Assembly (NCBI GenBank): GCA_000964245.1
Contig: LANB01000001.1
Coordinates: 1,700,392 to 1,764,391 of the forward strand
Direction of reading: 5' to 3'
DNA length: 64,000 bases
Origin: Cellvibrionaceae bacterium 1162T.S.0a.05
GTDB taxonomy: Bacteria > Pseudomonadota > Gammaproteobacteria > Pseudomonadales > Cellvibrionaceae
Shown: positions 27,150 through 40,387 of the stretch, one piece after another
Layout of the letters: each line of letters starts with the position of its first letter
How positions within the stretch are numbered: the stretch's first letter is position 1
The notes under the pieces: generated by a model
What the model was told of the DNA's origin: nothing
What the model saw: the letters and a program-made list of their open reading frames with translations, nothing else
Database searches by the model: none
Made by a program: the position numbers and the translations under genes

Positions 27150-27220
27150 CAAAATCCTGTTACATGTAATAAATTTGTTTTTGTTACATGTAAAACGCTT
27201 TACATATCACATGTAATAGA
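27150..27220 (+). promoter_or_regulatory. Three phased palindromic TTACATGTAA-type operator candidates upstream of the 27226 operon
   Basis: TTACATGTAA at 27160-27169 and 27184-27193, cACATGTAAt at 27208-27217, and a TTACATAT half-site at 27200. The spacing is about 24-25 bp, and the sites lie 20-75 bp upstream of the start codon. Confidence 0.45.
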
Positions 27221-27225
27221 TTAAA

Positions 27226-27876
27226 GTGGGCCTCATGAAAGCGAAGTCTTCAGCGCATTACCAAAGAGAATATCGTCGTCGTTTGCGCGAGCAGGGCCTT
27301 GTGAAAAAGGAAGTCTGGATTCGCCCTGAAAACGCGAAGCAGCTGGCCGTATTCGAAAAAATCCTGCGTGATGTCATCGAGACACCGCTGGACCCTAACA
27401 AACTGTTGCGTAAAGGAGAGCACACAATGACAGACTTGAAATGTTGGACGACAGACTCTCTCTACGAGGCCATGAAAGATGAAGAGTTGATTCTCAGTGG
27501 GCAGGCCTCGGTAGAACTTATAGGTGGCGTGCATCCAACCTTGCATATCGTGATGCATGAGTACGGGGATTTACCCCTTTTTATGACCGTAGCCGGGGAG
27601 CAGCTTGTCGTTGAAGCCGTACTGTGGTCAACAGAGGAAGTCAGCGATCTTGCGAAATTTAATGATGCTGTGCTGCGAACACACAAGTATTTTCCGCTGT
27701 CCACCATAAGCCTGGACACTCTGGGCGACGGCAAGGATTACTACCACATGTTTGGCGCCTTGAGCTCCGCCTCGATTTTGCCGAACGTGATTTTTGAAAT
27801 TGAAACACTCGCTGCCAATGTGATTCAGGCAACGGAAGCCTACAGCGATCTGTTAAACCCCGCCAAAGAAGCTTAG
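27226..27876 (+). CDS. Hypothetical protein. An N-terminal basic, probably DNA-binding segment is fused to a YjfI/DUF2170-like domain (assignment tentative).
   Basis: The N-terminus KSSAHYQREYRRRLREQGLVKKEVWIRPE resembles RHH/phage-repressor-like basic motifs. It is followed immediately by a PspA/IM30 gene, as in E. coli yjfI-yjfJ. The ATG at 27235 is an alternative start. Confidence 0.4.
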   Translation: MGLMKAKSSAHYQREYRRRLREQGLVKKEVWIRPENAKQLAVFEKILRDVIETPLDPNKLLRKGEHTMTDLKCWTTDSLYEAMKDEELILSGQASVELIGGVHPTLHIVMHEYGDLPLFMTVAGEQLVVEAVLWSTEEVSDLAKFNDAVLRTHKYFPLSTISLDTLGDGKDYYHMFGALSSASILPNVIFEIETLAANVIQATEAYSDLLNPAKEA

Positions 27877-27892
27877 TGCTGAGGAGATAGAA

Positions 27893-28576
27893 ATGAATAT
27901 CTGGGCGAAAATGATGACCGCTTTGCGCGGAGGCATTAACGAAGCCGGCGAAGCCATCGTCGACACGCAAGCCTTGCGCATTTTGGACCAGGAAGTCCGT
28001 GAGGCTACGGATGAGCTTGAGCAATCCAGGGATGGTTTGGCGGCAATTTTGGCTCGCCAAAAACTGGCCGAAGAAAAAGCGGCAAGTTTAAAAAAACAAA
28101 TTGGTGAATACGAAGGCTATGCCACCCAGGCGCTGGAAAAAGGTGACGACGCGCTTGCGCTTGAAGTCGCGCAGAAAATTGCCGACCTGGAGAACCAATT
28201 GCAAACTGAAAATGATGCGGCTGCGGGTTTTGCTGACAGTGCGAAGGATTTACGTTCCGCTATCAAGCAGGCAGAGAGCAATATCAAACGTATCAAGCAG
28301 CAAATCGATACAGTCAAAGCCAAGGAAAGTGTGCAAAAAGCACAAACGGCGGTTGCCGAAAGGCACAGTGGTTCCAATTCAAAAATGCGCACGGCGATGG
28401 ATTCACTGGAGCGCATTAAGGAAAAGCAAGCACTTAAAGATGCGCAAATAAAAGCGGCTGCTGAAATGTCACGTGAAAAAGGTGATGACAGCCTGCAAAC
28501 AAAACTGGAAGAAGCCGGGATCGCACCGACGGGTAAAAAAGCACAAGAGGTGCTGGACCGACTGAAAAAGAAATAG
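27893..28576 (+). CDS. PspA/IM30-family protein (YjfJ-like)
   Basis: The MNIWAKMMTALRGGINEAGEAIVD N-terminus and the long coiled coil (227 aa) are typical of PspA/Vipp1/YjfJ. Confidence 0.8.
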   Translation: MNIWAKMMTALRGGINEAGEAIVDTQALRILDQEVREATDELEQSRDGLAAILARQKLAEEKAASLKKQIGEYEGYATQALEKGDDALALEVAQKIADLENQLQTENDAAAGFADSAKDLRSAIKQAESNIKRIKQQIDTVKAKESVQKAQTAVAERHSGSNSKMRTAMDSLERIKEKQALKDAQIKAAAEMSREKGDDSLQTKLEEAGIAPTGKKAQEVLDRLKKK

Positions 28577-28973: not shown

Positions 28974-29288
28974 ATGATTATCACCACCCAGGATCGCATT
29001 GAAGAAAAAGAAATCGTTGAAACGCTCGGTCTTGTTCGGGGAAATACAATTCGGGCAAGGCACATTGGTAAGGATATTCTCGCGGGGCTGCGCACTATCG
29101 TCGGTGGTGAAATCAGTGAATACACCAAAATGCTGGCGGAAGCGCGTGAACAGGCCATTGACCGCATGACGGAAGAAGCAAGGAAGTTAGGTGCTGACGC
29201 GATTGTATGTTTACGTTTTACGACGTCGCCGGTTCTACAAGGCGCGGCGGAACTTCTAGCCTATGGAACAGCTGTAAAATTAAATTAA
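28974..29288 (+). CDS. YbjQ/UPF0145 (DUF74) family protein
   Basis: 104 aa; the EIVETLGLVRGNTIRARHIGKDILAGLRTIVGGEI core is typical of YbjQ. Confidence 0.75.
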   Translation: MIITTQDRIEEKEIVETLGLVRGNTIRARHIGKDILAGLRTIVGGEISEYTKMLAEAREQAIDRMTEEARKLGADAIVCLRFTTSPVLQGAAELLAYGTAVKLN

Positions 29289-29341: not shown

Positions 29342-30283
29342 ATGTTTAATCTCATTCTAATTTTTATATTATTTGTATTGTCAGTGCTTAGCGTGACGAA
29401 AATAGCGAGCGCTGTACAGGAAAAAGAAGCCGCACCCGTGTTTAGATACGGAGGCTATTTAGGTCTGGCAGCAGCGACAGTGTGGTTGGCATTCAGCTGT
29501 GTGATGACCGTGCCTGCAGGCCACGTCAAAGTGGCTACGCTCTTTGGTAAAGTACTTGATAATACCTATAAAGAAGGGTTTCATGTCGTCAATCCGCTAC
29601 TCGACTTTACGGTATTTGACCTCCGCCAAAAAACGCATAAAGAAACGGCAGGCATTCCTGCTGAGGATAAGTTGATTACCCGTATGGATGTGTCTGTGCA
29701 ATATCGAACTATCGGTAGCATGGCACCAGACATACTGAGAAACACCGGTACGACAGAATCACTTATCCAGGTTCATATGATTCCCAAGTTGCGTTCAATC
29801 TTGAGAGAGCAGGGTAAAGGAGTGCCGATGTCACAGGATTTTTTCAAGGAGTCGATTCAAAGACAGCTACAAGAGAGTTTACAAGTTGGCTTGGCGGATT
29901 TTCTTGCGGATAAAGGTATTCAGGTTGAGACTGTGCTTATTCGTGAAGTGCAACTGCCAGAAGTGATTCGCACGGCGATTACCGAAACCAAAAAACGTGA
30001 ACAGGAAGTATTAAAGCAGCAAGCAGAATTGGAGCGTTTCGCGACAGAGCAAGATCAGAAAGTGAAACAAGCCGAATCAGAGTTAAAAGCTGCGAAGCTT
30101 GAAGCTCAGAAAATCAAGGAGTTAGCTGATGCTGAAGCCTACAAAATCAAGGTGATTAACGAAACCCTGGCGAAATCACCTAACTACATTGAATTAAAGC
30201 GTGTTGAGCAATGGAATGGCGTTCTGCCAGTATACGCAGGCGGAGAAAACATCCCGATGATTGACTTAAGAAAACCACGCTAA
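29342..30283 (+). CDS. SPFH/band-7 (prohibitin-like) membrane protein
   Basis: N-terminal TM helix, then the SPFH core (VPAGHVKVATLFGKV...FHVVNPLLDFTVFDLRQ) and a C-terminal coiled coil. Confidence 0.8.
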   Translation: MFNLILIFILFVLSVLSVTKIASAVQEKEAAPVFRYGGYLGLAAATVWLAFSCVMTVPAGHVKVATLFGKVLDNTYKEGFHVVNPLLDFTVFDLRQKTHKETAGIPAEDKLITRMDVSVQYRTIGSMAPDILRNTGTTESLIQVHMIPKLRSILREQGKGVPMSQDFFKESIQRQLQESLQVGLADFLADKGIQVETVLIREVQLPEVIRTAITETKKREQEVLKQQAELERFATEQDQKVKQAESELKAAKLEAQKIKELADAEAYKIKVINETLAKSPNYIELKRVEQWNGVLPVYAGGENIPMIDLRKPR

Positions 30284-30336: not shown

Positions 30337-31023
30337 ATGTTTGCAATTCTCGTCACTGACAAAATGGATGTGTTCTACGGAAACATTACCAGCTTCCCCA
30401 CGGTCGTTTTCACCGTTTTACTTTTGTTTTGTTTTCTCTATTGGTTGGTTGCCGTCATTGGTTTGATCGACTTTGATTTTCTTGATTTCGATTTGCCGTC
30501 CGATGATATTGACCTGGGTGGAAACGATAGCCTCGAAAACGTGAATGTGCTGGCGGGCTTGCTGTTAAGGTTGGGCTTAAACGGTGTTCCCTTTCCCATT
30601 GTTTTTTCTATCATAACCATTATTGGCTGGCTAATCTGCTACTACGCGGTGTACTTTATTTTTCCGCTTGTGCCGGGCAGTGTACTCGAGTTTCTGGTCG
30701 GTATACCCATTCTTATAGCAACGTTTTATTTCAGTGCGTTAATTACCGGGAAAATCATTAAGCCACTCAAGTCTATATTTCGAGCTGCCAATCAGGAAGT
30801 TCAGAAAACCATCCTGGGAAAAGTTGCCATTGTTCGTACAGCAAGAGTGGATGCAGATTTTGGTGAAGCGGTTGTGGAAGATGGGGGTGCAGGTCTCATA
30901 GTGAAGGTAAGGCCGTACAAAAAACAAACCTTTACGCGCGGCGACCGTGTTGTATTACTGGAACACGTACGGGAAGAAAATATTTATAAAGTGATATCAG
31001 AACAAGAATTTAGCGATTCTTAA
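30337..31023 (+). CDS. NfeD/YqiJ-like membrane protein with a C-terminal OB-fold (flotillin partner)
   Basis: Multi-TM N-terminal half with an acidic DFDFLDFDLPSDDIDLGG loop. The C-terminal GKVAIVRTARVDADFGEAVVEDGGAGLIVKVRP is an NfeD-type OB fold. It sits immediately upstream of flotillin, as yqiJ does with yqiK. Confidence 0.6.
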   Translation: MFAILVTDKMDVFYGNITSFPTVVFTVLLLFCFLYWLVAVIGLIDFDFLDFDLPSDDIDLGGNDSLENVNVLAGLLLRLGLNGVPFPIVFSIITIIGWLICYYAVYFIFPLVPGSVLEFLVGIPILIATFYFSALITGKIIKPLKSIFRAANQEVQKTILGKVAIVRTARVDADFGEAVVEDGGAGLIVKVRPYKKQTFTRGDRVVLLEHVREENIYKVISEQEFSDS

Positions 31024-31036
31024 AAGGAGAAAAGAA

Positions 31037-32965
31037 ATGTCAGAATATATTGGCGCATTGGGAGGCATAATGGTGGCGGTTTTTGCCATCTTTATATTTC
31101 TCGTGGTTGTGGCTGCGCTGTTTAAATCTTTCTATGTAAAGGTTGAGCAGGGCACCGCGTTAATTAAAAACGACCTTAGCACTCGTCCAAAAGTGTTTTT
31201 TACTGGTGCCTGGATTATTCCTGTCATCCATAAAAAGGAATTAATGCGTATCTCCTTGATTACCATGGAGGTCGATCGGCGAGGTAAAGATGGCTTGATC
31301 TGTAAGGACAATATGCGGGCGGATATCACGGTTGCGTTTTACCTGCGAGTCAATGAAACACCTGAAGATGTACTCAAAGTCGCCAAGTCACTCGGCTCCA
31401 GTCGCGCATCAAATAAAGATGCCGTAAATGAACTCTTCAATGCCAAATTTTCTGAGGCGTTGAAAACAGTGGGTAAGCGCTTTGACTTTGTGAACCTTTT
31501 TGAAAATCGTCAGGAGTTTCGCGACGCGATCATCGAAGTTATCGGCAACGACTTGAACGGTTACGTACTGGAAGACGTTGCAATTGATTATCTGGAGCAA
31601 ACGCCAAAAGTCTCACTGGACCCAAGCAATATTCTTGATGCAGAGGGTATTCGCAAGATCACTGAACTGACAGCGACTCAAAATGTACAAACCAATAATT
31701 ATGAGCGTGACGAAGAGCTCGCAATTAAGAAGAAAAACGTAGAAACCGTTGAAGCGATGCTGGAACTCGAACGCCAGCAGGCAGATGCGGAAGCCAAACA
31801 GCAACGTGAAATTGCCACCATTCAAGCGCGAGAAGAAGCGGAAACCATTAAAGTTCAGGAAGAAGAACGCAAAAAATCCTCTTCAGCAACCATCCAGGTT
31901 GACCAGGATCTCGCCGTACAAAAAGAAAATCAACAGCGTGAAATCGAAGTGGCCGAACAAAATCGCCAACGTGCAGTGGTTATTGAGGTCGAAAAAGTCA
32001 CGCGCGCACGAGATCTTGAAATTGTCGCCCGTGAACGCGAGGTCGAACTGCAACGTATTGATGCAGAAAAAGCAGTTGAAGTTGAGAAGAAAGAAATTGC
32101 CAATGTCATTCGGGAACGTGTTGCGGTTGATAAAACGGTTGCGATTGAAGAAGAGCGTATCAAGGAAGTGCGTGAAGTGTCTGAAGCAGATCGCCTGAAG
32201 CAAACCCAGGTATTGGCAGCAGAAGCTAAAGCGGAAGAAGAGAAAGTTAAACGTGTGAAAGAAGCGGAAGCTGAAGAGATTGCAGCGAAGCATAAAGCGG
32301 TTGAGGTCACCACTATCGCGCAGGCCGATCTCGAAGCGGCTGCGAAAGAAGCCGATGCCAAGAAGAAACTTGCAGAAGGTGTACAGGCTGAACGTGCAGC
32401 GCCGGGGCTTGCGGATGCCAAAGTGCAGGAAGCTAAAGCGGATGCGCTAGAGAAAGAAGGCCTTGCTGAAGCGAAAGTGATTGCATCAAAAGGTCAGAGC
32501 GAAGCGGAAGTGATTGCTGCGAAAGGCGATGCCGAGGCGCGTGCTACGAAAGAAACAGGTCTTGCGGGTGCTGAAGTTATTCGTCAGAAGTTCAAAGCGG
32601 AAGCGGACGGCCTTGTAGATAAATTCGAAGCGATGGGCACTATGAGTGATCAGGCGCGTAATCACGAAGAATTCCGTATGGCGCTGGAAACAGCTCTCAA
32701 GGAAGCGCTGGCCTCGATTGAAGCGGGTAAGGAAATCGCGAAGGAAAATGCCGAAGTGCTGGCCACAGCGCTGCAAAAAGCGAAGATCGATATTGTCGGT
32801 GGAGAAGATCACTTCTTCGATAACTTTGCGAAATCGCTTTCCATTGGTAAAGCGGTCGACGGGTTGGCCAACAAGAGCAGCACGATTTCGACTTTGTTGG
32901 AAAAAGTGATGGCCTTCTCTGCGGGTGCGCAGGCTACGAAAAGCTCCGATTTGGAAACCCAATAA
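31037..32965 (+). CDS. Flotillin-family protein (YqiK-like)
   Basis: N-terminal TM and SPFH domain (VEQGTALIKNDLSTRPKVFFTGAWIIPVIHK...), then a very long E/A/K-rich coiled-coil tail. 642 aa. Confidence 0.85.
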   Translation: MSEYIGALGGIMVAVFAIFIFLVVVAALFKSFYVKVEQGTALIKNDLSTRPKVFFTGAWIIPVIHKKELMRISLITMEVDRRGKDGLICKDNMRADITVAFYLRVNETPEDVLKVAKSLGSSRASNKDAVNELFNAKFSEALKTVGKRFDFVNLFENRQEFRDAIIEVIGNDLNGYVLEDVAIDYLEQTPKVSLDPSNILDAEGIRKITELTATQNVQTNNYERDEELAIKKKNVETVEAMLELERQQADAEAKQQREIATIQAREEAETIKVQEEERKKSSSATIQVDQDLAVQKENQQREIEVAEQNRQRAVVIEVEKVTRARDLEIVAREREVELQRIDAEKAVEVEKKEIANVIRERVAVDKTVAIEEERIKEVREVSEADRLKQTQVLAAEAKAEEEKVKRVKEAEAEEIAAKHKAVEVTTIAQADLEAAAKEADAKKKLAEGVQAERAAPGLADAKVQEAKADALEKEGLAEAKVIASKGQSEAEVIAAKGDAEARATKETGLAGAEVIRQKFKAEADGLVDKFEAMGTMSDQARNHEEFRMALETALKEALASIEAGKEIAKENAEVLATALQKAKIDIVGGEDHFFDNFAKSLSIGKAVDGLANKSSTISTLLEKVMAFSAGAQATKSSDLETQ

Positions 32966-32996: not shown

Positions 32997-33488
32997 ATGA
33001 AAACTCTAGTGAAAATTAGCCTTTTACTCATTCTGTCAGTGCCGGTATTTGCTGCAGATAACGAAAAGGCCGCACGCGCCGAACTGGATAAAATGTTCGA
33101 ACTAACGAATATGACTGCAATGGTCGATCAAATGTACGCCCAAATTGGGAATATGTGGCAACAAATGGCGGCGCAGCAAAATATTCCTGCTGACAAAGCG
33201 GGTGTCACTAAAAAATATTTTGAGAGACTCGAAGCCATAATGCGTGAAGACATGAGCTGGGAAAAAATGAAAGAACCAATGATGCAGGTCTACATTCGCG
33301 CTTTCAGTCTTGAAGAAATAAAAGCCATGAATGAATTCTACGAAACACCGGCAGGTTCTGCGATGTTGAAAAAAATGCCCCAGGTCATGCAGGAAAGCAT
33401 GATGGTGGGTCAACAACTTGCACAAGCAATGATGCCTAAAATCCAGGCTTTATCGCAGGAAATGTCTGCCGAACTGCAAGCGAAATAA
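32997..33488 (+). CDS. Periplasmic DUF2059-like protein
   Basis: Signal peptide and Met/Gln-rich helices (FYETPAGSAMLKKMPQVMQESMM). Confidence 0.55.
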   Translation: MKTLVKISLLLILSVPVFAADNEKAARAELDKMFELTNMTAMVDQMYAQIGNMWQQMAAQQNIPADKAGVTKKYFERLEAIMREDMSWEKMKEPMMQVYIRAFSLEEIKAMNEFYETPAGSAMLKKMPQVMQESMMVGQQLAQAMMPKIQALSQEMSAELQAK

Positions 33489-33512
33489 AGTCAACAGAAA
33501 AAGGAAGCTCAG

Positions 33513-36500
33513 GTGTCAATAGAACGGGAAAGCGCACAAGTCGATCAAGCCGTTGCTGAAGGTGGCGCATACGAGGTTCTGCGCAAGCGCTTGCTTGAGC
33601 AGGGTACAGCGCTGGAGACTGCGATCAAAGCGCTCAATACAGCACGGCTGGATGAATTTGGTTCGTCAGATATGGAAGTCTGCGCGCGGGTTCGTATCCG
33701 CACGGAGAACAATTGTGTAGCGCGTGACATTGTCCAGGTTGGCCCTTTGCTTCTTTTTGGTTACAACGTTTTTATCGGTTTAAAAAAAGAAACACGCGTA
33801 GAGGATGTTTTTTCTGTTTTTTCACTAAAGGGTGAGGGAAAGGACCTGACGCTTGAAGAGGTCAAAGCAGAAAACTGCTTCCTGGCAAACAAGGCCTTCC
33901 GCAAAGACTTTAAAGAACTTTATCATTATTACAGCCAAACCAAATTGCTGGAGCTCACTGTCAAGGACGGCAAATTATTGATGGGCTTTCAAATCGGCGA
34001 GCGCCTGGAAGACCAGCGTGTTTTCCGTTGGGCATTTTCTCCAGACGGCACACAACTGGAATACATTGATAATCGCGGTGAGCGTGATATCGCGTTGCCA
34101 CCTTCCTATGATTTTGAATGGTTGAAACTCGGCCGTGACGATACCGTACATGGCAAACACGCGCATGTGAATGTGCTCGACAAGGTTTTTGTTGAAACAA
34201 CACGCGGCGATCTTACCATCAAAATTGAAAACAATACTGAAAGTGGATTGGGTATTTACAGCGAAGCGGTCGAAGAACCAAACCAATCCATAGACGACGC
34301 TGAATATTATTACGCTGCACTGGGGGATTTGATTCTTTTAAAAATCTTACCCTACAAAGAAGATCACTTCCGTTATTTTATTTTTAATACCCTAACGAAT
34401 GATATCCGCCGGCTTGATGCCATTGGCGGTTCTTGTGTGCAGCTCCCGGAAGATCACGGCGTGGTTTTTCCAGGTGGTTATTACTTGCAAAGTGGTGAAT
34501 ACAAAACCTTCGATAGCAATAGCGAAAACCTTCGTTTCAAACGGGTATTGAAATCGCCCAACGGCGAAGATGTACTTTACGTTTTCTACGAGCCTGAAAA
34601 GGGTATTTGCGGCCTGTTTGCTTACAACATGATCAATAAGAGCTTGCAAAACCCGATTTACGGGCATGGCTACGCGCTCAGAAACGACGGCAAGCTCATC
34701 ATATTTTCAGCCGAAAAAGAGGCGACACGTGTTCACCCCATGCAAATTTGGGAAACACCCTATTTCAGTGACGAGTACGCGAGCACCCAGCCCGCGAGTC
34801 AAAGTTACTATGGCCGTATTGGTAACGCTGCTCTGGTCCGAGGCATATCTGACGTTCTGTCTGTTGTCCGCATGATTAAAAACCAGAGTGTTAGCTCGCG
34901 GCTTTACGAAGAAATGGCCAGAGCCTCGCTCAAGGTGTTTGATGATCACTATTGGTTAGCGGAAGATGAATGTGCGGAAATTCAGGCACAGCTCAAAGAC
35001 ATTGCTTCGAGCGCCAATCTTGCAATTGATGAATTTGAGAAAGTCAAAAGCATTCAAAAACAAAGTGCACAGGCACTAAGAGAAGCGGATAGCAAACAGA
35101 AGGCGCTGGTATCGCGCATTCGCACAGCGAGTTGGGAAAATGCAGAAGACTATGTGAAAGCGCTCGATGAATGTCGCCACCAGCGTGGTCGTCTGGCAAC
35201 AATTAAAGATTACCGTTATATCGATCTCGAAAAAATCGGCGCGCTGGATGAAGAAATTGCTGAAGTCCAGGAGCAGCTTGGTGTTAAAACGATAGAATTT
35301 CTGAGCGCTGGCGATGCGCTAGCGCCCTACCTGGAAAAAATCAGTGGCATCGACAGTGAGGTGCAAGAAGCAGAAACGATTGCAACGCTAACCCCCTTGG
35401 TTGAGCAGATCGAAAACATTGCCTCTGGTCTGGACTTGCTGTCGGAATTACTTGCGAGCTTACAAGTTGGTGATACCACAGTACGCACCCGCATCGTCGA
35501 CAGCATCTCTGAAGTGTATGCGAAGCTGAACCAGAGTAAGGCGCAAGCACAACACAAGCAAAAAAATCTTGGCTCCGAAGAGGCCATCGCACAATTTGCC
35601 GCGCAATTTAAGTTGTTCTCACAAAGCATTACCAATGCCTTGGGTTTGGCAACAAGCCCGGAAGCTTGCGACGAGCAAATGTCGCGCTTGCTCATTCAGC
35701 TGGAAGAACTTGAAAGCCAATTCAGTGAATACGAACAATTCCTCGCAGATATTATGGAAAAGCGCGAGGAAATTTACGAAACCTTTGAAAGTCACAAGCA
35801 AAAATTGTTAGACGATTGTCAGCGGCGCGCGCAAGGCATTGCTGATGCGGCAGACAGGGTTCTGAGCAGTATTCAGCGGCGCAGCCAAAAATTTACCGAC
35901 CAGGATGAGCTCAATACCTATTTTGCTTCTGATGCTCTGGTGCTCAAGGTACGTGAATTCGTTGCGCAATTGCACAAACTGGATGCCAGTGTAAGCGCTG
36001 AAGACATCGATGCCCGTTTTAAAGCCCTGAAAGAACAAAGCATCCGAATTTTGCGTGATAAAAGTGATATTTACGAAGAGGGCGGTGCGGTTATCAAGTT
36101 GGGGCCGCGTCATAAATTTTCGGTGAATACCCAGGAGCTGGATCTCACCATCATACCCCGCAAAGATGCACTCTTTATTCATTTATCGGGAACAGATTAC
36201 TACCAGCGCATTGAGCATGAAGAGCTCAACGCGTTAAAACCCTGGTGGCATGTCAATCTGGAATCAGAAAGCGACGAGGTGTATCGCGCAGAATATCTGG
36301 CTGCCAGTATTTTGTGGGCAGCCCAATCCCGGCGCGATGATCTGGATATGGAGACCTTGCGTCTTGCCAGCTCAGACGACAAAGCGTTGAATAAACTTTG
36401 CCGAAATTTTGCCGCGCCACGCTACAAGGAAGGCTATGAAAAAGGCATACACGACCACGATGCTGCGCGGATTCTTTCTGCTCTTATTCCTGCAATGGAA

Positions 36501-38831
36501 AGTGCAGACTTGCTGCGTTTTGATCCGCAATGCCGGGGTTTTGCTCAGGTATTTTGGGCAAACATTGAAAGAATTTCGGCAGAACTAAAGAACAAACGCC
36601 TCACGTTTGAGACCTGGGTTGAGCGCGCGCAATCAGCACATCAGATGCAAGCTCAGCTACAAAGCCGCGACGCCGCTGAATTGCTCGCAGAAGAAGTGTT
36701 TGCAGCAATGCAGGAGTTTATCGCCTATCACCCCTTTGACCTCAGCGAACTGGAGTTAAAACGTGCTGCTGATTATCTTGTGGCTGAGTTGGGCGAGGAC
36801 CGACCGCAATTTGTTGGCTCAAAATATGCGAGAACACTGGCAGATGAATTAAAACGCTCATTGAATGATGAAAGCTGGCGGCAATTTCAAACCGCACTGA
36901 AGAAAATGCAGGGTTGGCCAGCAGAACGTTGGAAGCTCAGTTGTGCCTGGTTGAAAGCGATGGTCAAGGAGCGGAACCTGGAATCCTTGATGCGCTATGT
37001 CCCCGAAGCGGCAGCACTGATCAATGCAGACGAACGGATCGAACGACGCCCCTCGGAAGTGGATTTGGAATTAAATGTTGAAAAGCTCCTTGGGGATCAC
37101 AAACGTATCCAGAACCAATGTTTGCAACTAGGCGTCGATGAATTCCTTTTGCGTATGCACAAACATCGCAATGAATTTATTCCATCCTACCAGCGCTTTC
37201 ATCACTTGCGTCAGCGCATTGCCGATGAACAAAAGGCCCGCTTGCGCTTGCAGGAATTCAAAGCCAGGCCCTTGAGCTCGTTCGTACGCAACAAACTGAT
37301 TAACGAAGCCTACCTGCCTATTATTGGCGACAACCTGGCAAAACAAATGGGAACGGTCGGCGACAGTAAGCGCACGGATTTGATGGGCTTATTAATGATG
37401 ATCTCGCCTCCCGGCTACGGTAAAACCACATTAATGGAATATGTGGCGAGCCGCCTGGGATTGATATTCATGAAAATAAATTGCCCGGCCCTTGGACATG
37501 ATGTGCTATCACTGGACCCACAACAAGCGCCAAACGCAACGGCGGCTCAGGAGTTGAACAAACTCAATCTGGGTCTTGAAATGGGCAACAATGTCATGCT
37601 GTATCTGGATGATATTCAACATACTCATCCGGAATTTCTGCAAAAATTTATTTCTCTTTGCGATGGTACGCGCCGTATAGAAGGGGTATGGGACGGTCAA
37701 ACAAAAACCTACGATATGCGTGGCAAAAAATTCTGCGTTGTTATGGCCGGTAACCCCTACACCGAGTCTGGGGAAGTGTTCAAAATTCCGGACATGTTGG
37801 CTAACCGCGCCGACATTTATAATCTTGGTGATATTCTGGGCGGCATGGATGAGGCGTTCGCACTCAGTTATGTGGAGAACAGCCTAACATCAAACTCCGT
37901 GCTCGCGCCTCTCGCGACTCGGGATTTGAAAGACGTGTACCTTTTTGCGCGCATGGCACAAGGTGAAGATGTCGCGACCACAGATCTGAGCCATCAGTAT
38001 TCAGCGGCAGAAATCGGTGAAATTGTCGATGTCCTGAAAAAACTTTTCATGATTCGCGATGTCGTGTTGAAAATTAATCAACAATACATCGCCTCCGCAG
38101 CACAAGCGGACAAGTATCGCGTAGAGCCGCCCTTTAAACTGCAAGGTAGCTATCGCAACATGAATAAAATGGCAGAAAAGGTTTCTGCCATCATGAATGA
38201 AAAAGAACTTCAACAACTTATTGAAGATCATTACCTCGGTGAAGCACAGTTATTAACAACAGGTGCCGAAGAAAACCTGTTGAAACTGATGGAATTGCGC
38301 GGCGTTCTTCAAGGTGAAAAAGCGCAACGTTGGCAAGCCATTAAGAAAGATTTCTTGCGCGTTAAATCTCTTGGTGGAGACGACGCAGATACCGGAACCA
38401 AAATCATAACGCAGCTCGGCGTGTTGGGTGAAAGCTTGAATAGCATTGCTGTGGCTACCCAGCGAGCGGGCAAGGATTTTGGTAAGGCGGTGAGTAAAAC
38501 AGACAAAAGTCGTGATCATGCTGCTATGGATTCAAGAGTGGCGGACGCATTACTCGCCTTAAAATCCGTAATCGAGAAAATTGAATCAACAACAAAAAAT
38601 ACGCCACCTCCCAAGGTTGAAGTTATCAATCAACCCGTACCTGGCGTTGATAAAATATTGAGAGTGTTGGCAAAAACTATCGAAGGAACAATCTTTCCAC
38701 TGGTTCGCAGTATGGATAAGAAGCTGGAAATCGACCTGCGAACCCATGAAAAAATGTCTGAAGTTTCGAACCAACTCAGAGAACTGGAAAAGGAAGTTCG
38801 TACAGGTAGTTTTGAAAAAGGTCAGTCCTGA
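33513..38831 (+). CDS. Giant (1772 aa) protein with an N-terminal beta-rich domain, a long coiled coil and a C-terminal MoxR/AAA_5-like ATPase domain
   Basis: GTG start with an AGGAAG RBS. Walker A MMISPPGYGKTTLM, Walker B MLYLDDIQH and the MoxR-like sensor block VVMAGNPYTESGEVFKIPDMLANRADIYNLGD are present. About 600 aa of heptad-rich helix precede the ATPase. Confidence 0.8.
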   Translation: MSIERESAQVDQAVAEGGAYEVLRKRLLEQGTALETAIKALNTARLDEFGSSDMEVCARVRIRTENNCVARDIVQVGPLLLFGYNVFIGLKKETRVEDVFSVFSLKGEGKDLTLEEVKAENCFLANKAFRKDFKELYHYYSQTKLLELTVKDGKLLMGFQIGERLEDQRVFRWAFSPDGTQLEYIDNRGERDIALPPSYDFEWLKLGRDDTVHGKHAHVNVLDKVFVETTRGDLTIKIENNTESGLGIYSEAVEEPNQSIDDAEYYYAALGDLILLKILPYKEDHFRYFIFNTLTNDIRRLDAIGGSCVQLPEDHGVVFPGGYYLQSGEYKTFDSNSENLRFKRVLKSPNGEDVLYVFYEPEKGICGLFAYNMINKSLQNPIYGHGYALRNDGKLIIFSAEKEATRVHPMQIWETPYFSDEYASTQPASQSYYGRIGNAALVRGISDVLSVVRMIKNQSVSSRLYEEMARASLKVFDDHYWLAEDECAEIQAQLKDIASSANLAIDEFEKVKSIQKQSAQALREADSKQKALVSRIRTASWENAEDYVKALDECRHQRGRLATIKDYRYIDLEKIGALDEEIAEVQEQLGVKTIEFLSAGDALAPYLEKISGIDSEVQEAETIATLTPLVEQIENIASGLDLLSELLASLQVGDTTVRTRIVDSISEVYAKLNQSKAQAQHKQKNLGSEEAIAQFAAQFKLFSQSITNALGLATSPEACDEQMSRLLIQLEELESQFSEYEQFLADIMEKREEIYETFESHKQKLLDDCQRRAQGIADAADRVLSSIQRRSQKFTDQDELNTYFASDALVLKVREFVAQLHKLDASVSAEDIDARFKALKEQSIRILRDKSDIYEEGGAVIKLGPRHKFSVNTQELDLTIIPRKDALFIHLSGTDYYQRIEHEELNALKPWWHVNLESESDEVYRAEYLAASILWAAQSRRDDLDMETLRLASSDDKALNKLCRNFAAPRYKEGYEKGIHDHDAARILSALIPAMESADLLRFDPQCRGFAQVFWANIERISAELKNKRLTFETWVERAQSAHQMQAQLQSRDAAELLAEEVFAAMQEFIAYHPFDLSELELKRAADYLVAELGEDRPQFVGSKYARTLADELKRSLNDESWRQFQTALKKMQGWPAERWKLSCAWLKAMVKERNLESLMRYVPEAAALINADERIERRPSEVDLELNVEKLLGDHKRIQNQCLQLGVDEFLLRMHKHRNEFIPSYQRFHHLRQRIADEQKARLRLQEFKARPLSSFVRNKLINEAYLPIIGDNLAKQMGTVGDSKRTDLMGLLMMISPPGYGKTTLMEYVASRLGLIFMKINCPALGHDVLSLDPQQAPNATAAQELNKLNLGLEMGNNVMLYLDDIQHTHPEFLQKFISLCDGTRRIEGVWDGQTKTYDMRGKKFCVVMAGNPYTESGEVFKIPDMLANRADIYNLGDILGGMDEAFALSYVENSLTSNSVLAPLATRDLKDVYLFARMAQGEDVATTDLSHQYSAAEIGEIVDVLKKLFMIRDVVLKINQQYIASAAQADKYRVEPPFKLQGSYRNMNKMAEKVSAIMNEKELQQLIEDHYLGEAQLLTTGAEENLLKLMELRGVLQGEKAQRWQAIKKDFLRVKSLGGDDADTGTKIITQLGVLGESLNSIAVATQRAGKDFGKAVSKTDKSRDHAAMDSRVADALLALKSVIEKIESTTKNTPPPKVEVINQPVPGVDKILRVLAKTIEGTIFPLVRSMDKKLEIDLRTHEKMSEVSNQLRELEKEVRTGSFEKGQS

Positions 38832-38834
38832 TCT

Positions 38835-39392
38835 ATGGCCAGCGAGAGTATAGTTGCGCGCGTAAAATTGCTGTTCAGCTTATGCATGTTTCTGATTCTG
38901 GTTCATGCAGCGAATGTGTTTCTACAAGGCTATTTACTGCAATTCGGCATTTTACCGCGGGAACCCACTAGCCTGCCTTTTATATTCACCACCGTATTTA
39001 TTCATGGGTCCTGGGCGCATTTATTTAACAACCTCTTCGGCCTTGTAATTTTTGGTTCGCTTTGTCTTTTGCGCGGTCGCCGATATTTCATTAACGCCAG
39101 CCTCTTTATTATTGTAGTCGGTGGGCTACTGGTATGGGCGTTTGGTCGGCCAGCAATACACATCGGTGCGAGTGGATGGATATTTGGCTTGTGGAGTTTA
39201 AGTATTGCTCTTGCCTGGTACCAAAAAAGCTTTATCAACTTCGCTATAGCGGTGCTTGTTCTATTTTTTTATGGCGGGATGATATACGGCGTACTGCCAG
39301 CGGATAAAGCGATTTCATTTGAAGCGCACCTGGCGGGCGCCTTCGCAGGCATTCTATGTGCTGCAAATAGCAGAACACGAAAAATACGGTAA
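38835..39392 (+). CDS. Rhomboid-family intramembrane serine protease
   Basis: GASGWIFGL (GxSG) and AHLAGAFAGIL (catalytic His helix) with 6 TM helices. The start lies 4 nt after the giant ORF stop. Confidence 0.8.
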   Translation: MASESIVARVKLLFSLCMFLILVHAANVFLQGYLLQFGILPREPTSLPFIFTTVFIHGSWAHLFNNLFGLVIFGSLCLLRGRRYFINASLFIIVVGGLLVWAFGRPAIHIGASGWIFGLWSLSIALAWYQKSFINFAIAVLVLFFYGGMIYGVLPADKAISFEAHLAGAFAGILCAANSRTRKIR

Positions 39393-39452: not shown

Positions 39453-39704
39453 ATGAAAAGGAAATTTTCAGTAAAAGTCAATCATTATGCAGCAAAAGCA
39501 ATAGATGTAAATTTTAATAGTAATGAAGAGACAATCGCAATCAACCTTGTTTTATTGATGATTGTTGGTGGAGTCGCATGGTATGGAATCGAACATAAAA
39601 TATGGGGATTGTTCTGGTTTTTTATCGTTGCCGGTACCCTTATAGGGATATCCCTGTTAATCGATTTATACTTGCTTATTAAGAAAAAGATATGTCCAGA
39701 TTAA
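39453..39704 (+). CDS. Small two-TM membrane protein
   Basis: RBS AAAGGAGAAAAAATG. 83 aa. It overlaps the start of the PLD-like gene. Confidence 0.4.
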   Translation: MKRKFSVKVNHYAAKAIDVNFNSNEETIAINLVLLMIVGGVAWYGIEHKIWGLFWFFIVAGTLIGISLLIDLYLLIKKKICPD

Positions 39705-40387
39705 AAGAGCTTGAACAAAAACTTCTAATCACATTCGAAGATCTGCGTTTATCCAAGCTGGAAAAATATGAGTTGCAGAAGCTTGTGACTGAATGCTCGG
39801 AAGAGGAGCGTCGTTTTCTCAAGAATCGGGCTTTTGCTATTTTCAGGGAGCATTTAAATCATTTTGAAGATGCTGCTGATGCTTATTCGTGGCTTGAGCG
39901 TTGCGTAAAGGCACTAGCGCTTCCGCAAAATCATTTGGCGAAACCACGGGTCTATTTTTCGCCAGGTGAAACGTGCCGGCAGGCCATCGTACATGAAATA
40001 AAAAACGCCCGAGAGAAAATACAGATTTGCGTGTTTACCATTTCAGACAACGTAATAAGTGAAGCACTATTGCAAGCTTTTGAAAAGGGTATAGACCTAA
40101 AAATTATTACCGACAATGAAAAAAAGGAAGATCGGGGATCCGATATTAATGCGCTAAAAAACGCGGGCATCGCAGTAAGAGAAGATGCGAGCCCGGATCA
40201 TATGCATCACAAATTTGCGATTTTTGATAACGACGTACTTATAAATGGCAGTTTCAATTGGACGCGAAGTGCAAGCCTTCGAAACCACGAGAATATCGTG
40301 GTCCACCGCCAACCGCAGCTTGTTGCTGAATTTCAAAGAGAGTTTGCTAGACTGTGGACTCAATTTTCCAAAGAGGGGAGACGATAA
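39692..40387 (+). CDS. Phospholipase-D-superfamily (single HKD, Nuc-like) protein with an N-terminal helical extension
   Basis: HKD motif HHKFAIFDNDVLINGSFNWTRSA. About 140-aa PLD core after a 90-aa coiled-coil N-terminus. Confidence 0.7.
   Translation: MSRLKELEQKLLITFEDLRLSKLEKYELQKLVTECSEEERRFLKNRAFAIFREHLNHFEDAADAYSWLERCVKALALPQNHLAKPRVYFSPGETCRQAIVHEIKNAREKIQICVFTISDNVISEALLQAFEKGIDLKIITDNEKKEDRGSDINALKNAGIAVREDASPDHMHHKFAIFDNDVLINGSFNWTRSASLRNHENIVVHRQPQLVAEFQREFARLWTQFSKEGRR

Follow-up and report, generated by a model that had tools for sequence, protein, structure and literature searches.

The window analyzed here is a 64,000-nucleotide stretch of the genome of Cellvibrionaceae bacterium 1162T.S.0a.05 (contig LANB01000001.1, positions 1,700,392 to 1,764,391). 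At 33513..38831 on its forward strand, it carries a complete gene for a 1772-amino-acid (aa) protein that combines a DUF3686 domain, a DUF7902 domain, and a single C-terminal AAA+ ATPase module. The protein is a typical member of a family that is catalogued, computationally described, and biochemically uncharacterized. Judging from sequence and from analogy with known AAA+ systems, we see an even chance that it is a giant, cytoplasmic, ring-forming AAA+ ATPase, encoded in a conserved envelope-stress operon, that would remodel flotillin and PspA assemblies on the membrane.

Scanning one genome per species, we found a homolog of the ATPase in at least 586 species, and we fetched 80 loci for neighborhood counts. 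Homologs of the window's 642-aa flotillin-like open reading frame (ORF; 31037..32965, forward strand) were present in 74 of these loci, and homologs of its 228-aa NfeD/YqiJ-like membrane protein (30337..31023, forward strand) in 72. A DUF2170 (YjfI-like) gene together with pspA was found in 48 of the 80, a rhomboid gene in 22, and a phospholipase D (PLD)-family gene in 24, the last two usually downstream of the ATPase gene. The order is also conserved: in nearly all loci carrying them, the NfeD-like and then the flotillin-like gene lie immediately 5′ of the ATPase gene, and DUF2170-PspA precede in most. Loci that are missing the upstream genes are mostly on short contigs. Among eight distant relatives (approximately 30%–40% identity), a flotillin-like gene was directly upstream in all eight; an NfeD-like gene was detected in four, and PspA, rhomboid, or TelA genes were near some.

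The first-pass annotation of this DNA had called it unusual for such a protein to sit directly after flotillin genes. As 74 of the 80 loci and all eight distant relatives share this arrangement, and Ravi et al. (2024) described the operon, the adjacency is the rule and not an oddity; it is the defining context of the family and has been reported before (PMC11237479), as has the corresponding bacABCDEF cluster (PMC10948618). In the window itself "directly" holds nearly, as a DUF2059 gene whose product has a signal-peptide-like N terminus (32997..33488) lies between the flotillin-like gene and the ATPase gene.

Database annotations of distant members repeat the pattern under other names. A Streptomyces locus reads "flotillin family protein" followed by "DNA repair ATPase." In Hymenobacter, the order is "chaperone Tir," "PspA/IM30," "DUF1449," a hypothetical protein, and "DNA repair ATPase," where DUF1449 is, by annotation, the counterpart of the NfeD/YqiJ-like gene. 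The megaplasmid pQBR103 (L094) carries a rhomboid gene, yjfKLMC-like genes, a hypothetical protein, an "SPFH domain-containing protein," and a "DNA repair ATPase." On this plasmid the flotillin-ATPase pair is joined to the yjfKLMC-like, polyamine-linked genes. We also observed tellurite-resistance-type genes near distant members: TelA is encoded directly downstream in L081 (13001-14221), and TerD nearby in the Streptomyces locus L092 (15122-15655).

The ATPase gene is intact. The ORF starts with GTG, runs for 1772 codons with no internal stop, and is preceded by the ribosome-binding site AGGAAG (33502-33507), 5 nt ahead of the start codon. Only 24 nt separate it from the gene before and 3 nt from the gene after, and the operon genes are all on the same strand. 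Since full-length, collinear homologs exist, the ORF is not a frameshift fusion of two genes, the outcome that would have undone the original description: homologs of approximately 1770 aa align end to end at 63%–80% identity, and 64 family representatives with 33%–53% identity have the same architecture. The earlier argument that the uninterrupted 5.3-kb ORF is real is thereby upheld.

Pfam places the protein firmly in the DUF3686 family. PF12458 (DUF3686) matches aa 34-480 over nearly the entire profile (positions 2-448 of 448) at E = 4.3e-198 and 658.8 bits (cutoff 25), and PF25472 (DUF7902) matches aa 601-684 (E = 6.6e-28). In the full-length protein, AAA (25.7 bits, cutoff 21.2) and AAA_5 (24.6 bits, cutoff 22) match at approximately aa 1294-1421. 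The DUF7902 domain within the helical region, the single C-terminal AAA module, and a length within the family range of about 1600-1900 aa are all as expected for a member. By word-indexed search, the family has at least 4968 clusters at 90% identity; querying exhaustively with aa 1-500 gave 723 representatives at 50% identity. Because every full-length representative is about 1550-1930 aa long, the architecture can be regarded as monolithic. The family spans Pseudomonadota, Actinomycetota, Bacteroidota, and Deinococcota. In searches of the PDB, the sequence of this protein matched RuvB, p97, NVL, and Rix7, always locally around the P loop; searches with a profile of the AAA segment and with a profile of 65 diverse full-length members again returned P-loop-local matches only.

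The AAA+ module carries a set of catalytic motifs. As the first-pass annotation had it, there is exactly one P loop in the protein (SPPGYGKTT, aa 1298), Walker B reads LYLDDIQ (aa 1363), the sensor-1 region VVMAGNPYTESGEVFKIPDMLANRADIYNL is at aa 1409 (the VVMAGNP...ADIYNL block), and a long stretch, approximately 1245 residues by our count, stands N-terminal of the module. We delimit the AAA+ core to aa 1246-1445 (37248..37847, forward strand), with Walker A SPPGYGKT at 1298-1305, Walker B LYLDDIQH at 1363-1370 (D-D), and sensor-1 GNPY at 1413-1416; candidates for a pre-sensor-1 hairpin (RRIEGVW, 1387-1393) and an Arg finger (R1432) also lie in the core. The core is followed by a helical lid region (aa 1446-1600; 37848..38312, forward strand) with the invariant sequence EPPFKLQGSYRNM. 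R1548 in this region is a candidate sensor-2 residue because of its analogy with the G-x-x-R of RuvB/MoxR-type AAA+ proteins, in which that motif is sensor-2. The roles of sensor-1, Arg finger, sensor-2, and pre-sensor-1 were assigned by eye.

These motifs are strongly conserved. SPPGYGKT, D1366-D1367-x-Q-H, R1387, GNPY, PDML--R1432, and QGSYR1548 are invariant in 65 representatives with 33%–53% identity. The region from aa 1246 to 1600 is the best conserved part of the protein, and its core is 200 aa long with a standard deviation of 1.4 and a mean identity of 69%. Walker A, Walker B, sensor-1, and the candidate Arg finger occur in the canonical order of the AAA+ superfamily, together with an AAA profile match. 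From this invariance we predict an active ATPase under selection.

Within the superfamily, AAA_5 is the closest description. No other profile spans the core in full, from Walker A through sensor-1, and AAA_5 matches the isolated segment with 29.2 bits (cutoff 22) over profile positions 2-128 of 139; AAA and AAA_5 each match 29 of 29 diverse members. The first-pass annotation had gone further and named a MoxR/AAA_5-like ATPase, from which one would expect a chaperone that works with a von Willebrand factor A (VWA)/MIDAS partner to mature or activate a specific protein complex. Besides the AAA_5 match, the GNP of sensor-1 and the L-x-x-R-h block look, by eye, like the ATQNP...LDRF block of MoxR and dynein types, and GNP after β4, a predicted insert before sensor-1, and the L-x-x-R arginine are features shared with RavA, CbbQ, dynein, and midasin. 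The protein differs from all of these in its D-D Walker B and huge N-terminal extension, and the AAA_5-like half of the label is reasonable, but the MoxR half does not hold. AAA_3, the Pfam profile of MoxR-type ATPases, stays below its cutoff of 27 with 14.4 bits (E = 0.035), and only 14 of 29 members match it at E ≤ 0.1. A check for a VWA partner found none in the protein or among the ORFs scanned between 27.2 and 41.2 kb, and the protein is approximately five times the size of MoxR, with the additional N-terminal residues conserved. Aligning the AAA alignment with E. coli RavA by hhalign gave a probability of 7% over 81 columns, a single-sequence comparison that does not discriminate; the same holds for an FtsH, where the probability was 86% over only 33 P-loop columns. 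We regard a MoxR-type function as very improbable.

The N-terminal part of the protein fits the earlier description only in part. The N terminus is indeed β-rich. An AlphaFold2 model of aa 1-500 (mean predicted local distance difference test [pLDDT] score 82.8) contains approximately 26 strands in aa 55-414 (33675..34754, forward strand), which form the core of DUF3686 and, in this model, a propeller-like domain. In the same model, aa 416-500 and a helix near the N terminus (aa 19-49) come together in a helical bundle. The approximately 600-aa coiled coil proposed earlier did not survive. Instead, there is a segmented amphipathic helical arm of approximately 445 aa (aa 416-860; 34758..36092, forward strand), which includes the DUF7902 match. 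Within this region and its continuation, periodicity of 3.5-3.6 residues is confined to aa 443-600, 618-670, 695-775, and from approximately 828 onward, with conserved breaks between these segments; AlphaFold2 folds aa 875-1240 into a compact domain, largely of helices, at a pLDDT above 90.

The length of the arm is nearly constant. Measured from aa 496 to 860 (34998-36092), it has a median of 365 aa, a standard deviation of 1.3, and a range of 359-367 in 65 representatives with approximately 33% identity, and its length is identical among 28 diverse loci. The regions that flank it vary by tens to hundreds of residues across the family. Such constancy in sequence length fits a mechanical spacer or lever. 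It is also suggestive of a molecular ruler or of an antiparallel, matched arm.

Beyond the arm, the middle domain (aa 875-1240; 36135..37232, forward strand) is 327-412 aa long across the family and carries the conserved motif RY-EGY--G(I/V)HD-DA at aa 970-984. We note it as an orphan domain with a conserved H-D-x-D motif. The protein ends in a variable, poorly conserved tail (aa 1601-1772; 38313..38828, forward strand) that ranges from 36 to 304 aa across the family, has a mean identity of 21% to the window sequence, and is modeled with low pLDDT.

This architecture bears on two kinds of machine to which the protein had been likened, and on the name under which its relatives are filed. Since there is a single P loop and there are no ABC-type heads, the protein is not SMC-like; Pfam gave no SMC or ABC match, and the N terminus is propeller-like. 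Nor does it resemble a dynein stalk, as the segmented arm sits N-terminal to a single AAA module and not within a ring of concatenated modules. Relatives are called "DNA repair ATPase," "AAA family ATPase," or "MoxR-like ATPase" in databases, and the Pfam descriptor of PF12458 is "ATPase involved in DNA repair." A repair ATPase acting on DNA in the manner of SMC or Rad50 would have this inherited name and the weak, P-loop-local RuvB matches in its favor. Pfam detected no DNA-binding or nuclease domain, the conserved neighbors are all membrane or PspA-system proteins, and no paper in the collection searched links the family to DNA repair; none mentions DUF3686 or PF12458, and none pairs "DNA repair ATPase" with flotillin. 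The name is without support, and we consider a role in DNA repair extremely improbable.

The operon has a close, partly studied counterpart. Ravi et al. (2024) described this operon type and proposed sub-membrane assembly and remodeling roles for PspA-associated proteins; shorter flotillin-YqiJ-ATPase versions are reported to be widespread in bacteria and archaea (PMC11237479). The window operon is of this type: the ATPase gene lies 3′ of the flotillin-like and YqiJ/NfeD-like genes, with the DUF2059 gene inserted, and yjfI-pspA is at the head. The window protein is like the family of Ravi et al. in both full-length DUF matches and in its operon partners, and we found no difference of substance. 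In Pseudomonas aeruginosa, reverse-transcription PCR links the six genes of bacABCDEF ("biofilm-associated cluster") as one transcript, levels of BacB to BacF are 6- to 13-fold higher when bacA is mutated, and bacE has the locus tag PA14_16190 (PMC10948618). PA14_16180 is the SPFH protein PaFlo3, which is paired with the short NfeD protein PA14_16160 (PMC13086221).

By inference, the window ATPase is the ortholog of P. aeruginosa BacE (PA3728/PA14_16190). The link runs through the published cluster and the sister species P. paraeruginosa (L023), and not through an alignment with the PAO1 or PA14 sequence: the L023 locus shares the gene order, and its ATPase is 55% identical and collinear over aa 10-1760. 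The order DUF2170, PspA, NfeD-like, flotillin-like, ATPase, PLD is common to the P. aeruginosa cluster and the window, and the window differs in adding YbjQ_1, 313-aa Band_7, and DUF2059 genes, and a rhomboid gene after the ATPase gene.

The PLD gene and the response of the P. aeruginosa operon to phage raise the question of defense. In such a system, the ATPase would sense infection at the membrane, and the PLD (Nuc/DrmC-like) hydrolase or the rhomboid protease would serve as the effector of abortive infection. The PLD protein matches the DrmC, MkoC, and DpdK models (E = 3.5e-12 to 1e-8) and NucT, a PLD gene is adjacent in the 24 loci noted above, and every phage-infected sample showed induction of PA3728-PA3732 (PMC12041424). 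However, phage induction is expected for any Psp-type membrane-stress operon, and PLD is lacking in most loci. The lone match of the ATPase in PADLOC-DB 2.0 was to IetA, which is sub-significant (E = 0.004) and P-loop-local, with no stretch passing alone. Unlike patchily distributed defense genes, the ATPase gene is conserved, in the same operon, across orders and phyla at 50%–80% identity. Plasmids, moreover, almost never carry the gene, and phages lack it: 13 of 72,556 plasmid records contain a family gene, mostly on replicons of 0.17-11.8 Mb, and none of 50,697 phage records does. The ATPase gene is not mobile, and a role in defense seems quite improbable to us.

How might such a protein act on membrane assemblies? 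In the remodeling reading, the operon would supply, in order, a YjfI-like chaperone, PspA, an NfeD/YqiJ-like protein, a flotillin-like SPFH protein, and the ATPase as the ATP-consuming component, often with rhomboid and PLD proteins. Hydropathy revealed no transmembrane segment in the 1772-aa protein, as opposed to one N-terminal transmembrane helix in the flotillin-like protein, which argues for a cytoplasmic location. The C-terminal AAA+ modules would form a ring, probably a hexamer, in which the invariant R1432 would be the trans-acting finger; it is the invariance of this candidate Arg finger that suggests a ring. The propeller-like domain and the fixed-length arm would project from the ring and dock on the cytoplasmic face of flotillin/NfeD assemblies, and may also reach PspA polymers, directly or indirectly. 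ATP binding and hydrolysis would then remodel these membrane scaffolds, through assembly, disassembly, or turnover, under membrane stress. The ring, its substrate, and the remodeling itself are all inferences; what the sequences show is family membership, domain layout, invariant ATPase motifs, and the conserved neighborhood, and it is from published work on the P. aeruginosa orthologs that co-transcription and co-regulation are known.

Two known systems suggest how this could work: Vps4 acting on ESCRT-III, and the AAA+ protease FtsH with the SPFH cage of HflK/C. PspA and Vipp1 are bacterial relatives of ESCRT-III, and, like Vps4, the DUF3686 ATPase is genetically coupled to such a polymer. 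It differs from Vps4 in that neither an MIT domain nor the Vps4 C-terminal domain was detected in it, classical-clade AAA proteins match its P loop only, and its tighter genomic link is to flotillin and not to PspA. HflK/C-FtsH combines an SPFH scaffold with an AAA+ enzyme; in mitochondria, the SLP2-PARL-YME1L (SPY) complex includes a rhomboid protease as well. The same three classes, SPFH, AAA+, and rhomboid, co-occur in the window operon. The window protein, however, has neither a protease domain nor a transmembrane anchor, and its core is not of the FtsH type, with only the 33 columns noted above aligned.

Several observations weigh against remodeling. Family members are uncharacterized in both biochemistry and structure, and the PDB searches reached nothing beyond P-loop-local matches. 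AlphaFold2 modeling of aa 851-1772 leaves aa 1246-1443 below a pLDDT of 50, with a multiple sequence alignment that is shallow and highly conserved, and the AAA+ assignment thus rests on Pfam and motifs. Every family member has D-D in Walker B (D1366-D1367; 37608-37613) where AAA+ proteins usually have D-E, which may mean slow, regulated, or switch-like hydrolysis and not a motor. By eye, no aromatic pore-loop motif is evident between β2 and α2, which makes substrate threading doubtful. Gene adjacency does not single out the substrate, which may be flotillin, NfeD, PspA, or something else, and deletion of paFlo3 in P. aeruginosa cut biofilm by just ~20% (PMC13086221). Finally, we rejected database proteins in which flotillin or NfeD is fused to the ATPase (P0232, P0257, and P0187) as Rosetta-stone evidence, because the joins fall mid-domain or the sequence is frameshift-like and of low complexity; they are probably assembly or gene-calling artifacts and lend remodeling nothing.

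Some of these observations would be explained if the protein were a nucleotide-gated scaffold or tether, a slow, DnaA-like switch whose ATP state organizes or spaces flotillin microdomains or recruits PspA with no mechanical remodeling. The Walker B of DnaA, IDDIQ, resembles that of the family, where D1366-D1367 is invariant, and both the ruler-like length of the arm and the lack, by eye, of an evident aromatic pore loop would suit such a device. Invariant candidate Arg finger and sensor-2 arginines, on the other hand, are what one expects of an oligomer that hydrolyzes ATP. Although the present data do not separate a slow switch from a motor, we think a pure scaffold or switch unlikely. The remodeling reading also has a stronger form, in which the family would be a new class of bacterial AAA+ mechanoenzyme: a single-module ring with propeller-tipped arms of fixed length that actively disassembles or reshapes flotillin cages, PspA (ESCRT-III) polymers, or both. 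We put this form forward only tentatively and hold it to be somewhat doubtful.

The remaining operon genes of the window fill in this context. The operon begins with the YjfI-like (DUF2170, CesT/Tir-type; E = 2.3e-49) and PspA/IM30 (PspA_IM30; E = 6.1e-45) genes at 27226..28576 on the forward strand. Pfam identified a 104-aa YbjQ_1 protein (28974..29288) and a second SPFH protein, of 313 aa, through its Band_7 match (29342..30283). These two genes and the DUF2059 gene interrupt the conserved operon, and counterparts of all three are lacking from the 80 related loci. Downstream of the ATPase gene, on the forward strand, are genes for a rhomboid protease with GASG and H present (38835..39392), an 83-aa ORF with no Pfam match (39453..39704), and a cytoplasmic PLD-family hydrolase with a single HKD motif (39692..40387).

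The two genes that define the neighborhood are themselves hard to recognize. The flotillin-like protein has an N-terminal transmembrane helix, an SPFH-like region, and a long E/A-rich helical region, and the NfeD-like protein has hydrophobic stretches at aa 12-33 and 71-123. Neither window protein gave a Pfam match even at E ≤ 10, and neither gave a PDB match, as a single sequence or as a profile. As a result, their identities rest on a few orthologs (2 of 28 flotillin-like orthologs reach Pfam Band_7 and 1 of 26 NfeD-like orthologs matches YqiJ_N), on annotations elsewhere, and on the literature. An hhalign comparison of the flotillin-like family with the window's Band_7 protein aligned the coiled coil only. 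This flotillin-like SPFH clade largely escapes the Pfam model, and its members can easily be missed in annotation.

The operon's first gene is preceded by three occurrences of a palindromic 10-mer, T(T/C)ACATGT(A/G)A (27160..27216, forward strand). The motif recurs at the same place, most often as two copies spaced by 21-24 bp (approximately -50 and -27 of the DUF2170 gene start), in 36 of the 46 related loci compared (Cellvibrionales, Pseudomonas, Gilliamella, Lampropedia, and others). We regard it as a candidate for a conserved operator. Promoter and terminator scans were at chance level, and by eye the window contains no sigma-54 -24/-12 element like that proposed for P. aeruginosa bacA.

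The window gene itself adds nothing new; the interest lies in the unsolved function of its family. An open question is how bacteria build flotillin scaffolds and PspA/ESCRT-III polymers and how they dismantle them. To our knowledge, most bacteria lack Vps4, and we know of no energy source for flotillin dynamics. The DUF3686 family is the sole ATPase consistently encoded beside a flotillin gene, often in a PspA operon, and the P. aeruginosa ortholog operon has effects on biofilm and on virulence and responds to phage infection by induction. K1304, D1366/D1367, R1432, R1548, the fixed-length arm, the H-D-x-D middle domain, and the candidate operator motif offer experimental handles on the problem. 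If the stronger form of the remodeling reading is true, the DUF3686 ATPase would take the part of Vps4 in bacteria, where a counterpart has been missing, and SPFH microdomains would have their first ATP-driven regulator.

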